Positions 18,013 through 22,566 of a stretch of DNA of 28,659 nucleotides are shown here, piece by piece. Under the pieces are notes generated by a model. It was not told the DNA's origin. It did no database searches and saw only the letters and a program-made list of their open reading frames with translations. Source of the stretch: an uncultured Muribaculaceae bacterium (GTDB taxonomy: Bacteria > Bacillota_I > Bacilli_A > RF39 > UBA660); the NCBI GenBank assembly GCA_964652445.1, contig CAZZCM010000001.1, positions 1 through 28,659 of the forward strand. Reading direction: 5' to 3'. Every line of letters starts with the position of its first letter. The stretch's first letter is position 1. The translations under genes and the position numbers were made by a program.

Positions 18013-18357
18013 TTATTTAACCTCTTTCTTTTTATAAACTCTACCTAAAATATAATAACAAATTAAAATCAGTGGAATTAAAATAACAAATCCTACCACT
18101 AATTTAATAATTAGTGAGTCAAAAAACTCTAATAAAGTTACCGTAATGGCAATTATAAACGCATTAACCAAAGATAAACTATTCGCAAATTTTTTATGAT
18201 TCAAATTTTCAATATCTAGTTTATAAGCATTTTTAAAAAACAATAATTGCTTACCTGTTTTAAAAGCCTCCAATCCTTTTTTTCGACTTACAATAACTAA
18301 GTAATAAACTAAATAAACGATTACAAAACAAATTAAAAATAAATAAACAAGTTCCAT
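18013..18357 (-). CDS. Small hypothetical membrane protein (about 3 TM) between the T-box and leuS
   Basis: SD AAAGGAGG; three hydrophobic stretches; TAA-t-ATG junction with leuS. Confidence 0.8.
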   Translation of the reverse strand: MELVYLFLICFVIVYLVYYLVIVSRKKGLEAFKTGKQLLFFKNAYKLDIENLNHKKFANSLSLVNAFIIAITVTLLEFFDSLIIKLVVGFVILIPLILICYYILGRVYKKKEVK

Positions 18358-18665: not shown

Positions 18666-18690
18666 AAAATATAAGACATAAGCCTTATAT
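18666..18690 (-). terminator. Terminator overlapping the GH31 stop
   Basis: ATATAAGGC-TTAT-GTCTTATAT-TTT; short U tract. Confidence 0.55.
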
Positions 18691-21087
18691 TTCGTTAATA
18701 TATTCAAGTAACTTAATAAACATTTTAATAAACTTCTTATCAAGTCCTTTTTTCCCAAGTTTTCTAACTTCAATACGTTTCTTTTGAATTGTTAAATTAC
18801 TAAACAAAATGCCGTCTATTTCTTCTTTCATTTCCGTTGAAATTTGTAAGTCACTAATGATGCCTTCAATTTCACGATTAATTAAATGGACTGCATCAAT
18901 TTCAATGTCTTTCCCCTTACAATTTACAGTAAGTTGTCCAATCGTTTTAACATCATTGACTTCAACAATAAAATCAGGTCCATCAACATAAGTCTTAAAT
19001 GAAACTTTATCACGATTACTATAAACCTCAACATCATCTGTACGTTTAGTGTTTCTAAAAACAATCTTATAGTTTCTCTTTTCGGGAATAATTCCGCTTT
19101 TACCATCTTTCGCTCTAATAATTATACTGTAATTATTGGGCAAATAGTTGTATTCAATCTCTGTAAGCAAATAAAATCCCTTACGATATAAATCACTTTC
19201 GCCATCATCTTCAAATAATGTATAAGTATTACTTTTCCCAGGGAAAATTTGAATTTCCATATTATCTGGTGGTGTCGTATCATTTAAATCACTATTAGTT
19301 CCTAATGGAATAATCGCTCCTGACCTTGCGAATACGGGAAATTCTTCATCTCTAAAGAATGTAATATAATTTTTTCCACCAGGAAATTTCTTGCCCGTAA
19401 CAAAGTCGTACCATGTCCCTTCAGGAATGTAAAAGTTATGAACAACACGATTCATGACATAGTCTTTTCTCGATACTATTGGGCAAACAAGTAATTCTTC
19501 GCCAAAATAATATTCAGTACGATATAAAGCATCATCATAAAATTCTGGATTAGTCGCGTAAATTGGTTTAACTAAGGGCTTACCATATTTATGATACTTA
19601 TAAGCTTCACTATAAATATATGGAATCAGCTTATGACGTAACTGTAAATAATCTTTAACAATTGTATAAGTCTTAATATCCCAACGCCAAGGTTCACGTT
19701 TATAGTACTTACCTTTATCCACACCAAATTTCAAAATCGGTGAAAAAGTACCTAATTGAACAAACCTAATATAAAGTTCTTCATCCTCGACGCCTTTAAA
19801 ATATCCGCCAATATCATGGGACCAAAAACTAACGCCATTATTATAAGCTGAAGCGTTATAAAATGGAACTTTCTTTAAAGTACCCCAACTAACTACTGTC
19901 TTACCAGAGTATAAAACGGGATAACGATGCGCAGCCAAACGAACATCGGGCGCTAAAACCATTGGTCTACGCTTATAATCACGTTGCATGTCATAAAATT
20001 GATAATGTTTAAGCAAGGCATTCTCCGTCAAATTAACCTTATAATCGTAATCAAGCCAAAAGAAATCAATTCCCATTGTATCCAAAGGATGAATAAACAG
20101 TTTCAAATAAACATCAATAAATTTCGGATCATACACATTAAAAGGTATTTTCCCATCCTTATTTGCTTGTAAATATTTTAAGGCCTCTGCATAAAGTTTA
20201 TCATAATTATAAATTCCTTCGGTTGGATTAATATTGAGACCAAGTCTTATACCTTTTGAGTGTAAATAAGTAATCATTGCTGAAGGATTTTTAAATTTAT
20301 CATTATCAAAAGTAAAACCAGATTTCAAATGATATTTACCAGTATATGCCCTTTTATGCCAATCCTTATCAAGTAACAATATGGAAACTGGAATCTGCTT
20401 TCTATCGAAAGTATCAACTAACTCTTTAAGTTCCAAATCATCATAAGCCTCATTACGACTCCACCAATTTCCTAAAGCGTATCTTGGGATTAAAGCGGGA
20501 TAACCAGTAAGCTCATAATAATCTTTTAAAGCGTCTTCATAATCATTGCCATACATAAATAAATAAGTATCAATTACTCCTGGTTCTCTAGAGACTATTG
20601 TACCATCCTCGTTCCAAACAAAGTCAGTACTATCATCAATACTAGCCATACTATCAGCTGAATATAATCCTTTATCACTGGTGATGCCATCTTCTAAACA
20701 AATGGCTGGGATGCCAAAATTCCTAACTTCTGGATGACCATAATACCACACTTTGTCAGTTCCTAAAAGTTCAACTTTAAGATTCATTGTTGGATTAACT
20801 TTACTACCTTCAAATGGTTTTTCTTTAGTATAAGTAAGTTTAAAATATTCTGTTGAAATCTCTACAAAATGGTTATCATTTCTGGTTTTAAAATCTGGGA
20901 CCGCCAAATTTCTGTGTAAAATTAGCCCTGTCGGCTTATCTAAAAAACTGCCATTAGGATTATATTCAAGTCTAATCACTCTTGGTGATAAAACTGTAAA
21001 GCGATAGTTATTACCGCTTATAAGCGCACTATTATTAGGTACTGCACTTTTAAAATCAATTTTAAATTGTTCCCCCAAATTATACAT
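18685..21087 (-). CDS. GH31 (GH31_u1-like, DUF5110) glycosidase homologue with a degenerate active site
   Basis: PRYALGNWWSR, LDKDWH, FFWLDY, HRYP, WSHDIGG, REPW. Acid/base SGD is SGK and RLH is KFG. Start ATG at 21087 (SD AGGGGTG). Confidence 0.85.
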   Translation of the reverse strand: MYNLGEQFKIDFKSAVPNNSALISGNNYRFTVLSPRVIRLEYNPNGSFLDKPTGLILHRNLAVPDFKTRNDNHFVEISTEYFKLTYTKEKPFEGSKVNPTMNLKVELLGTDKVWYYGHPEVRNFGIPAICLEDGITSDKGLYSADSMASIDDSTDFVWNEDGTIVSREPGVIDTYLFMYGNDYEDALKDYYELTGYPALIPRYALGNWWSRNEAYDDLELKELVDTFDRKQIPVSILLLDKDWHKRAYTGKYHLKSGFTFDNDKFKNPSAMITYLHSKGIRLGLNINPTEGIYNYDKLYAEALKYLQANKDGKIPFNVYDPKFIDVYLKLFIHPLDTMGIDFFWLDYDYKVNLTENALLKHYQFYDMQRDYKRRPMVLAPDVRLAAHRYPVLYSGKTVVSWGTLKKVPFYNASAYNNGVSFWSHDIGGYFKGVEDEELYIRFVQLGTFSPILKFGVDKGKYYKREPWRWDIKTYTIVKDYLQLRHKLIPYIYSEAYKYHKYGKPLVKPIYATNPEFYDDALYRTEYYFGEELLVCPIVSRKDYVMNRVVHNFYIPEGTWYDFVTGKKFPGGKNYITFFRDEEFPVFARSGAIIPLGTNSDLNDTTPPDNMEIQIFPGKSNTYTLFEDDGESDLYRKGFYLLTEIEYNYLPNNYSIIIRAKDGKSGIIPEKRNYKIVFRNTKRTDDVEVYSNRDKVSFKTYVDGPDFIVEVNDVKTIGQLTVNCKGKDIEIDAVHLINREIEGIISDLQISTEMKEEIDGILFSNLTIQKKRIEVRKLGKKGLDKKFIKMFIKLLEYINEI

Positions 21088-21107: not shown

Positions 21108-22520
21108 CTATATTTCATCAATTTTCATAAAATTGGTATGTTTTACTTTCTTAAATGGATATCCACCGGTTACAATAACTTTATCACCTTTTTCAAGTTC
21201 CAAAGTCTTTTCCGCAATACTCATTGCCTTTGAAGCAATAGTATCAAAATCAAAGTCACCAATTGCGATTGGTAATACACCAAAATATAAATTTAAACTT
21301 CTAGCAACTCTTTCATTAGCTGCTGCCGCAATAATCATACATGGTGGCCTGAGTTTACTCATTCTTTTAGCTGTATATCCTGTATTTGTGGCTATAATAA
21401 TGGCCTTACAATCAAGGGTTATGGCCCCTAGTGCTACACTGCTTGCAATGGTTCCAGCAATATCCTTAGAATTAGTTTTCAAAGCTGAATTAAAATGATA
21501 ATCATAATCGATTGTGTTTTCAGCTGCTCTAACAATTCTTTCGACCTCTTTAACTGCTTCTGCTGGCTTAGTCCCGATTGTGGTCTCGCCAGTTAATAAA
21601 ATTGCATCAACACTTTCGGAAACTGAATTTGCTAAATCGGAAACTTCTGCACGACTTGGAACCACATCATTTGTTAAAAAGCTATCGAGTTCTGCGGTAA
21701 TAATGCTAATTTTCCCTTTTCCATGACATTTACGAATAATTTTACTTTTAATATTGGGTACTTCTTCAAGTGGTAGTTCAACAGCTAAATCACTACGGGC
21801 AAGCAAAATTCCATCAGCAACATCAATAATTCTGTCTAAAGATTTTACTGCTCTTTCATTTTGAATCTTGGCAATAAGTCCAATATGATCATTTTCTAAT
21901 TCAATAAGCATGTCATTTACTTCCATAATATCTTCAGCATCAGATACATTGGATATTTCAATAAAATCAACATCCATTTTATGAGCAAATAAAATATCCT
22001 CACAATCTTGCTTTGTTAAAAACTTACGATTAAGTTTTATTCCTGGTAAATACAGTTTAGAATGGCTAACAACTCGGCCCCCTTTAACTACTTCACAAAC
22101 GGCATAATCAAGGCCTTTTTCTACAACCTCTAATACAACTTTGCCATCCATAAGTTTAATAACTGAACGAAATCGTAAATCATCAATTAATTTCGGATAA
22201 TTTATTGAAAACTGAAACCCATTACAAATAGCTGGATTCATATACATTCTAATACGCTCACCAGTTTCAAAATCGGCGTAACCTCCTTGAAACTCCCCGG
22301 TTCTAATACAAGGTCCTTCTAAGTCAACCATAACCGAAATATTACTTCCCAGTTTTCTATTTATTTCATAGGTTTTTTCGATAACATCTCTACAAAATCC
22401 GTAATCAGAGTAACTCATATTAAGGCGAATTACATCAACGCCATTAGACACTAATTCCTCTAAAACTTCCATTTTATTTGAAGATGGTCCAATGGTTGCA
22501 ATTATCTTTGTCTTGTTCAT
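21108..22520 (-). CDS. pyk: Pyruvate kinase homologue with a degenerate catalytic site and a conserved allosteric C domain
   Basis: TKIIATIGPS, GPCIRT, AKIQN, ARSDL, SRAEVSD, TGET, TNTGYTA; colinear with PK over 470 aa. Confidence 0.85.
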   Translation of the reverse strand: MNKTKIIATIGPSSNKMEVLEELVSNGVDVIRLNMSYSDYGFCRDVIEKTYEINRKLGSNISVMVDLEGPCIRTGEFQGGYADFETGERIRMYMNPAICNGFQFSINYPKLIDDLRFRSVIKLMDGKVVLEVVEKGLDYAVCEVVKGGRVVSHSKLYLPGIKLNRKFLTKQDCEDILFAHKMDVDFIEISNVSDAEDIMEVNDMLIELENDHIGLIAKIQNERAVKSLDRIIDVADGILLARSDLAVELPLEEVPNIKSKIIRKCHGKGKISIITAELDSFLTNDVVPSRAEVSDLANSVSESVDAILLTGETTIGTKPAEAVKEVERIVRAAENTIDYDYHFNSALKTNSKDIAGTIASSVALGAITLDCKAIIIATNTGYTAKRMSKLRPPCMIIAAAANERVARSLNLYFGVLPIAIGDFDFDTIASKAMSIAEKTLELEKGDKVIVTGGYPFKKVKHTNFMKIDEI

Positions 22521-22537
22521 AGTATCACCTATTATCC

Positions 22538-22566
22538 ATTATACCAGTTTTCTCATAAATTTCCAT
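22538..22566 (-). promoter_or_regulatory. Extended -10 promoter of the pyk-like/GH31-like operon
   Basis: ATGGAA-N17-TATAAT with TG at -15/-14, downstream of the greA terminator. Confidence 0.65.

Follow-up and report, generated by a model that had tools for sequence, protein, structure and literature searches.

The 28,659-nucleotide stretch analysed here (the window; contig CAZZCM010000001.1 of assembly GCA_964652445.1) comes from the draft genome of an uncultured gut bacterium of the RF39 lineage (UBA660) and carries, on its minus strand, a divergent pyruvate kinase (PK) gene, called PK-B below. The conventional activity of its product may well be gone or vestigial, the protein being kept for ligand binding or regulation, a reading to which a probability of about one half is given. 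The reasons are that a ligand of the divalent metal has been lost, that the loss of essential Lys and Arg residues is tolerated in side branches of the sub-clade, and that the genome shows no canonical PK and encodes a pyruvate, phosphate dikinase (PPDK). What is observed comprises the substitutions, how rare and how conserved they are, selection on the gene, its phylogeny, the presence of PPDK and the lack of a second PK in an assembly that is 93.8% complete; the loss of activity, the ligand binding and any regulatory role are inferred.

In the proposed scheme, PK-B would be the genus copy of an old PK lineage, always located directly upstream of a GH31-like gene with which it is probably co-transcribed. 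In its sub-clade, replacement of the Mg2+ ligand Glu (E272 in human PKM numbering) by Gln comes on top of changes regarded as clade-wide, at the monovalent-cation site (E118C), on the nucleotide side (H78Y, K207S/G208K, N210Y) and on the substrate-carboxylate side (G295S, T328A). Because of this addition, PK-B would most likely convert little or no phosphoenolpyruvate (PEP) and ADP to pyruvate and ATP, a step that PPDK can carry. PK-B is nonetheless maintained intact under purifying selection, with its phosphate-binding Arg and Lys, its K+ ligands, the Asp that binds the metal and the effector loop for sugar phosphates. Its most likely role would be non-glycolytic ligand binding, either as a regulatory or sensor pseudoenzyme or as a very slow enzyme serving control rather than flux.

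Active-site substitutions in PK-B

PK-B is a member of the pyruvate kinase family by fold and by profile score. Its open reading frame (ORF), the only one at its coordinates, encodes 470 amino acids (protein P0001), which match the Pfam families PF00224 (PK barrel; E 1.5e-71, 241.6 bits for a cut-off of 30) and PF02887 (PK_C; E 5e-28, 97.8 bits for a cut-off of 28), as well as the TIGR01064 equivalog (390.7 bits for a cut-off of 306.4). Full-length copies in the family typically reach barrel scores of 340-390 bits, and few score as low as PK-B with its 243. The AlphaFold model (pLDDT 93.5, pTM 0.91) superposes on PK structures with TM scores of 0.92-0.96; in the Foldseek comparison with human and rabbit PKM1/PKM2 structures these reach 0.95-0.96, with a root-mean-square deviation (rmsd) of 1.7-2.0 Å. 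The closest solved structures are those of the Staphylococcus aureus (3t05) and Geobacillus stearothermophilus (2e28) enzymes (E 1e-83), with which PK-B shares the A/B/C domain order, the effector-loop motif and the C-terminal loop. Their chains of 587-606 amino acids include an extra C-terminal PEPut-like domain, which is missing from PK-B, and PK-B differs from both at E272, G295, T328, F244, E118, K207 and H78. Automatic annotation calls the protein a 'pyruvate kinase', the TIGR01064 cut-off being passed and the NCBI records of relatives being so named. A metabolic reconstruction based on such names would assign to these gut Bacilli, which are abundant, uncultured and small in genome, a PK reaction that the sub-clade probably lacks.

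The substitutions were read from HMMER alignments to 3t05 and 2e28 and from a MAFFT alignment to E. coli PykF, and their conservation was counted in an alignment of 119 members of the PK-B clade. Canonical residues are given below in human PKM numbering unless stated otherwise.

21108..22520, minus strand: PK-B, divergent pyruvate kinase paralogue made up of a barrel (A), a lid (B) and an effector (C) domain (ORF, translation, Pfam, TIGR01064, AlphaFold)
22410..22412, minus strand: codon of Y37, H78 replaced by Tyr (alignments; Y in 116/119 clade members)
22302..22325, minus strand: D66-LEGPCI-R73, monovalent-cation motif; L67, E68 and C71 replace T114, K115 and E118, with D66 and R73 kept
22050..22064, minus strand: H153-S-K-L-Y157 of the B-domain lid (canonical KKGVN); K207 to S, G208 to K, N210 to Y
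21942..21953, minus strand: S190-N-V-S193 (canonical SFVR), F244 to N (alignments)
21858..21869, minus strand: K218-I-Q220-N221; catalytic Lys kept, Mg ligand Glu to Gln (alignments, codon read)
21783..21800, minus strand: A241-R-S243-D244-L-A246 (canonical ARGDLG); G295 to S, G298 to A, metal-ligand Asp kept
21678..21701, minus strand: I274-T-A276-E-L-D-S-F281; T328 to Ala, with a one-residue loop deletion after the strand
21372..21389, minus strand: T378-N-T-G381-Y-T383, phosphate-binding loop of the allosteric effector site (conservation)
21132..21164, minus strand: G453-GYP...H-T462-N463, C-terminal loop adjoining the effector site

The motif changes listed in the initial annotation (RLNMSYS, DLEGPCIR, HSKLY, SNVS, KIQN, ARSDLA and ITAELDSF) are all present in the HMMER and MAFFT alignments, and the Q220 codon is indeed CAA, at 21861-21863 on the minus strand. 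The residues that it described as retained (R32, N34, S36, D66, R73, K218, D244, R290, E312 and T378-x-x-G381-x-T383) were likewise found in the alignment. Most of the replacements are near-fixed in the clade: L67 in 119/119, E68 in 116/119 and C71 in 117/119 for the cation motif, S154 in 114/119, K155 in 117/119 and Y157 in 116/119 for the lid. The effector loop is as constant (T378 in 118/119, G381 and T383 in 119/119), and in alignment A1 the conservation of G453, T462 and N463, in the C-terminal loop, is 90% or higher.

Glu272 and Asp296 are the ligands of the enzyme-bound divalent metal. In PK-B this carboxylate pair is incomplete, Asp296 being kept as D244 and Glu272 being replaced by Gln220. 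The glycine G295 of the RGDLG motif and Thr328, which line the substrate carboxylate/enolate, are S243 and A276. The monovalent cation is bound by Asn75, Ser77, Asp113 and the carbonyl of residue 114; of these, N34, S36 and D66 are kept in PK-B, and residue 118 is a Cys, neither Glu nor Lys. In agreement with the initial annotation, the PROSITE PK active-site pattern would be mismatched by IGLIAKIQNERAV at the E replaced by Q and at an R where [DEQHS] is expected. Both Arg73 and Lys270, described as the phosphate-binding and the catalytic residue of PK, respectively (PMC10338316), have their equivalents in PK-B, R32 and K218.

The pairing of T328 depends on the alignment. It falls on T275 with phmmer (3t05, 2e28) and on A276 with both hmmsearch of the canonical profile and MAFFT. 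DSSP analysis of the AlphaFold models of PK-B and of a canonical PK (P0131) places a strand at 271-275 in both, and the next helix starts at 279 in PK-B versus 280 in the canonical model. Since the helix begins one residue earlier with an unchanged strand, the models support a replacement of T328 by Ala together with a one-residue loop deletion, as initially aligned. A Thr328 kept as T275 was rejected in view of these secondary structures and of the hmmsearch and MAFFT pairing.

How unusual these residues are was assessed against 134 representatives of 50%-identity clusters, all keeping the core catalytic set. E272 and G295 are invariant (134/134 each, Q and S in PK-B), T328 is found in 133/134 (A in PK-B), the only exception being a fragment from the PK-B clade, and Asn at F244, as in PK-B, is found in 0/134. 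Cys at the E118 position occurs only in the PK-B clade and is absent from the other PKs compared. Other residues of PK-B are shared with canonical enzymes: Leu at T114 (72/134), Ser at R246 (17/134), Ala at G298 (11/134) and Tyr at H78 (5/134), while K207, which is Ser in PK-B, is substituted in 27/134. Judged from these counts, T114L, G298A, R246S, H78Y and the K207 change are not diagnostic of lost activity.

As members of the family, the K+-independent crenarchaeal PKs are expected to keep the Mg ligands and the Thr. Crenarchaeal enzymes verified as active carry Ser or Val at rabbit position 117 and need no K+ (PMC4374775). As in PK-B, K+-independent PKs have Leu at rabbit position 113 and neither Glu nor Lys at 117 (PMC4374775; PMC8835810), so that an unusual 113/114/117 signature is compatible with activity. 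Unlike these enzymes, the PK-B clade combines Cys 117 with Glu 114 and Thr 120 (rabbit numbering), a mixed signature confined to it. Since such variants exist in canonical PKs, and Ser or Val at 117 in active crenarchaeal ones, the case for impaired catalysis rests on E272Q, G295S and T328A and not on the cation- and ADP-site changes. The initial annotation had seen the changes at the K+ and ADP sites correctly; as loss of function, they were over-read, being partly within the range of normal or active PKs. It had also named the occurrence of such substitutions in active enzymes as what would speak against it. Some are common in canonical PKs, whereas E272Q, G295S and F244N are found in 0/134.

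Sub-clades, selection and the route from PEP to pyruvate

Within the genus, 122 metagenomic and genomic PK-B sequences were compared. They have in common Y37, L67/E68/C71, S154/K155/Y157 and T275/A276 (each in at least 114/119), and they include two sub-clades. In the sister sub-clade (77 sequences), R32, N34, D66, R73, K218, E220, R242, G243, D244, R290 and E312 are present in 77/77. The sub-clade of PK-B itself (32 sequences, 100% support) has Q220 in 29/32, down to 62% identity. Further losses of essential residues, in human numbering K270C, E272G, R73C/K and R120C/K, are seen only there and in 0/77 of the sister: K270C in P0028 and P0032, E272G with R120C in P0047, R73C in P0128 and P0126. 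Shortened, long-branch forms (P0126, P0128, P0135) also belong to this sub-clade. Because the sister sub-clade has the shared changes together with its core residues in 77/77 and a low ratio of nonsynonymous to synonymous substitution rates (dN/dS 0.02-0.04), H78Y, L/E/C, SK.Y and T328A are, as far as the comparison goes, no sign of a dead enzyme when taken alone. The sister protein may well have remained an enzyme whose nucleotide side has been remodelled. A separate feature of the sister sub-clade (L007-L013 and other loci) lies at residues 9-13, where the invariant T-I-G-P has become T-V-C-E (G11C in 59/77, P12E in 55/77). By homology this motif is part of the nucleotide pocket, and its G-P is kept in the Gln-bearing sub-clade.

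Selection on the gene is clearly purifying. Close PK-B pairs have dN/dS of 0.02-0.04, compared with 0.04-0.10 for pairs of PK-A, the canonical paralogue of the genus; in the Gln sub-clade the ratio is at most 0.09-0.22, with dS saturated. Over 78 genome pairs, PK-B divergence is 1.4 times that of PK-A, and its rate relative to the GH31-like neighbour is 1.39 in the Gln sub-clade versus 1.08 in the sister. By its pattern of substitution PK-B is clearly no pseudogene, and its active-site pocket is still constrained. As for a possible pseudoenzyme, an essential catalytic residue has been lost, purifying selection is present and the gene is intact in at least 26 diverged sequences.

These data bear on the view of PK-B as a functionless gene in slow decay, still undisrupted, which is very improbable. 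The faster relative rate of the Gln sub-clade would fit it, as would the shortened forms on long branches, a relative in genome G188 broken by stop codons, and the fact that PK is dispensable in the family. Against it, at least 26 distinct sequences of the sub-clade, with identities as low as 62%, have an intact 470-residue ORF in which none of eight catalytic positions has changed. The dN/dS ratio also lies far under 1, and PK-B is preceded by a good promoter-like site and a ribosome-binding site. These genomes are moreover small (0.6-1.6 Mb), and small genomes tend to shed unused DNA.

The metabolic setting is consistent with a dispensable PK. The genome of the window (G000) is a 0.94-Mb draft of 133 contigs, with 30% GC and an estimated completeness of 93.8%. 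It encodes an enolase and an 883-residue PPDK (contig C60:1149-3698; loci L046-L048), with PPDK_N and PEP-utilizers_C in one frame. Among 119 high-quality genomes of the family, PPDK is found in 110 and any PK in 79, with none in the remaining 40: PK is dispensable in this family. The presence of PPDK in 110/119 and the absence of PK from 40/119 suggest that PPDK-based glycolysis is the family norm, and the comparative data point to PPDK as its core PEP-pyruvate enzyme. The Firmicute Clostridium thermocellum likewise converts PEP to pyruvate without PK, via PPDK (PMC7380578; PMC8863071). It is a precedent for dispensability, but has no PK homologue at all, whereas a modified one is retained here. 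Searches of the literature for RF39 together with PPDK, and for mutant data on Glu271 or Asp295, returned nothing. Canonical PK-A is absent from 4/5 genomes of the Gln sub-clade (92-95% complete) and present in 11/15 of the sister, a comparison that is descriptive only, related genomes not being independent. Two other links to PEP or nucleotides were considered and rejected. A phosphotransferase system (PTS) as PEP sink is countered by the sole PEP-utilizers_C match in G000 being PPDK, no PTS enzyme I having been found in that genome; a role of PK-B as stand-in nucleoside-diphosphate kinase (NDK), as proposed for Mollicutes, is countered by an ordinary NDK in G000.

Several observations weigh against the favoured reading. 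The absence of a second PK, PK-B being the only homologue found in G000, is based on draft genomes. The residues R32, N34, D66, R73, K218, D244, R290 and E312 are unchanged in 26/32 sequences of the sub-clade. In this genus, the ratio of barrel (A) to C-domain identity is 1.09, so that constraint on the barrel is no weaker than on the C domain; unchanged remaining catalytic residues and an unrelaxed barrel are the picture expected of a still-working active site. The carbonyl oxygen of a Gln can still coordinate Mg2+ or Mn2+, and a residual or metal-shifted activity is possible. Finally, the effector loop is also kept by ordinary PKs, so it is no specific evidence for a sensor.

Alternatively, PK-B could be a working isozyme, the organism's only PK beside PPDK, which would bind its metal through Gln and be unusual in the cations and nucleotides that it prefers. 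This explanation is possible, though doubtful. It agrees with the score above the TIGR01064 equivalog cut-off, with the low dN/dS and with the conservation of R73, K270, D296, R120 and the K+ ligands. Ser or Val at 117 is tolerated in verified active PKs (PMC4374775), L114, A298, S246, Y78 and a non-Lys 207 are met with in canonical ones, and the sister sub-clade shares most of them with its core residues in 77/77. It is harder to reconcile with the alteration, in PK-B, of all three of E272 and G295 (134/134 each in canonical representatives) and T328 (133/134), with the loss of K270, R73 and R120 in side lineages of the sub-clade without loss of the gene, and with the 40/119 genomes that do without any PK. 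The loss of ordinary PK catalysis in the Gln sub-clade is well supported, though only indirectly. Of the pseudo-kinase proposed by the initial annotation, the lost catalysis has gained support from E272Q, the additional losses, PPDK with no second PK, and the effector loop conserved throughout the clade; nothing obtained here points to a sensor or scaffold, to a partner or to a changed reaction.

Degeneration in the GH31-adjacent lineage

Most genomes of the genus have two PK genes, an ortholog of PK-B (52-78% identical to it) and the canonical PK-A (35-39% identical). A tree of 62 PKs resolves two old family-level clades, and the PKs directly upstream of a GH31-like gene together form one clade (98 SH-aLRT). 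This gene lies directly downstream of PK-B in all 21 loci of the genus and in distant metagenomic relatives. One metagenome contig (L054:380-3301) has in tandem a canonical PK-A-type gene, a degenerate PK-B-type gene and then the GH31-like gene.

A catalytic score was defined as the number of 14 core residues kept. Outside the GH31-adjacent clade, all 30 sampled PKs keep 13-14/14. Inside it, the score runs from 14/14 (G048, G064, G041, G170) through 11/14 and 9/14 (PK-B) down to 2/14 and 1/14 (G089, G061). The T-G-T of the effector loop is present in every GH31-adjacent PK, including those with 1-2/14 core residues. Where degeneration is greatest, the C domain shows undiminished identity to canonical relatives (0.52), while the barrel is down to about 0.4. 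Because T-G-T is kept in every member and the C domain is conserved where the barrel falls, selection in this lineage appears to have acted on a catalysis-independent, C-domain-dependent function. Genomes with a near-canonical copy mostly have no other PK, and the strongly degenerate copies mostly stand beside a canonical PK; the exceptions, with a degenerate copy as the sole PK found, are G096 and the group of PK-B.

Two loci, L113 (G061:C6) and L060 (G089:C10), encode intact PK homologues of 467-470 amino acids with 1-2/14 core residues, an intact effector loop and normal C-domain conservation; on these features they are the clearest pseudo-PK candidates of the family. The broken G188 copy (L061, G188:C2:32346-36451) is a true pseudogene, its N-terminal part being cut off by TAG and TAA, and its contig also carries a canonical PK at a distance of about 36 kb.

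A broader and tentative proposal, somewhat unlikely as it stands, is that the GH31-adjacent lineage as a whole is a PK-derived metabolite sensor: catalysis would have been abandoned independently in several genera, the sugar-phosphate effector domain being kept to report the glycolytic state to a partner. This genus would also keep a remodelled, metal-poor PEP-type pocket, and the partner could possibly be the co-transcribed, catalytically altered GH31-like protein. If so, the lineage would represent a bacterial pseudo-pyruvate-kinase.

Ancient PK duplicates are known elsewhere. The two isozymes of E. coli (PykF/PykA), Vibrio cholerae (PMC5501398) and Pseudomonas (PMC8637920) are likewise anciently diverged paralogues with different cation-site signatures. 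Both are catalytically complete in those bacteria, whereas here catalytic residues have been lost again and again in one of the two lineages, and G000 yielded no canonical copy. In Drosophila, pseudoenzyme paralogues of glycolytic enzymes have been predicted, and PK has six paralogues (PMC11836677). As in the PK-B lineage, duplicated enzymes of carbohydrate metabolism are described there as persisting after active-site loss. These predicted pseudoenzymes are eukaryotic and testis-restricted, and the passages available from that source do not state whether the PK paralogues belong among them. A literature search for a bacterial PK pseudoenzyme found none described; the lineage may provide a first bacterial example. 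The natural series from canonical to nearly fully degenerate PKs in one family, with a preserved effector domain, offers a system for asking why an enzyme outlives its reaction.

The locus and the GH31-like neighbour

Upstream and downstream of PK-B, the following elements were delineated.

22538..22565, minus strand: promoter-like site, TGGAAA, 16 nucleotides, TATAAT with an upstream TG (extended -10; consensus match only)
22525..22530, minus strand: ribosome-binding site AGGTGA, 4 nucleotides 5' of the PK-B ATG (sequence read)
18685..21087, minus strand: GH31-like gene, 800 amino acids from the ATG at 21087, with its own ribosome-binding site (Pfam, structure alignment, junction sequence)

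The junction sequence leaves 20 nucleotides between the PK-B stop and the GH31-like start. Since a consensus scan found no terminator-like site between the two genes and a strong promoter-like site is located after the GH31-like gene, they probably form a single transcription unit. A search for expression evidence listed no sequencing run for PK-B.

The closest structure to the GH31-like protein is 7wj9 (E 1e-111), whose FSGDS aligns to YSGKT. The general acid/base Asp is thereby replaced by Lys (codon 19900-19902, minus strand), a residue that the genus conserves. Over the family as a whole, this position is occupied by K, N, S, Q, E, T, R or H and seldom by D; some members also have Asn in place of the nucleophile Asp. 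The protein is thus probably no ordinary glycosidase. Its gene is near-core and single-copy (131/149 family genomes, 74/86 genera), with a PK upstream in 12/40 sampled loci and none in 28/40. Because the GH31-like gene is near-core and has a PK upstream in 12/40 loci, the pairing is best read, from gene order, as ancestral synteny of one sub-lineage and not as an obligate system. A dedicated two-gene pseudoenzyme system was considered and found unsupported in that form: the GH31-like gene is near-core, mostly without an upstream PK, and variable at its acid/base position, and canonical PKs also occupy the same upstream position.

A further, decidedly unlikely case is that PK-B is a neofunctionalised enzyme, its PEP/phosphoryl core being reused and its acceptor or carboxylate pocket remodelled for another substrate or reaction. 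In its favour, the replacement residues are near-invariant (Y37, E68, C71, S154, K155, Y157 and A276 in at least 114/119; Q220 in 29/32), and homology places them on the side of the site that faces nucleotide and carboxylate. It would also fit the equal or lower dN/dS of close pairs (0.02-0.04 against 0.04-0.10 in PK-A), though PK-B diverges 1.4 times faster over the 78 pairs. However, there is no candidate substrate, and no conserved neighbour points to one. In most of the family the GH31-like gene has no PK beside it. Giving up a metal ligand would also be an odd route to a new phosphotransfer, and related lineages decay to 1-2/14 core residues.

Further along the minus strand, a 114-residue ORF without a Pfam match (18013-18357) lies between a T-box leader and leuS, with a 1-nucleotide gap to leuS. 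A counterpart of 114-115 amino acids occupies the same position in the distant relatives L051, L053 and L115.

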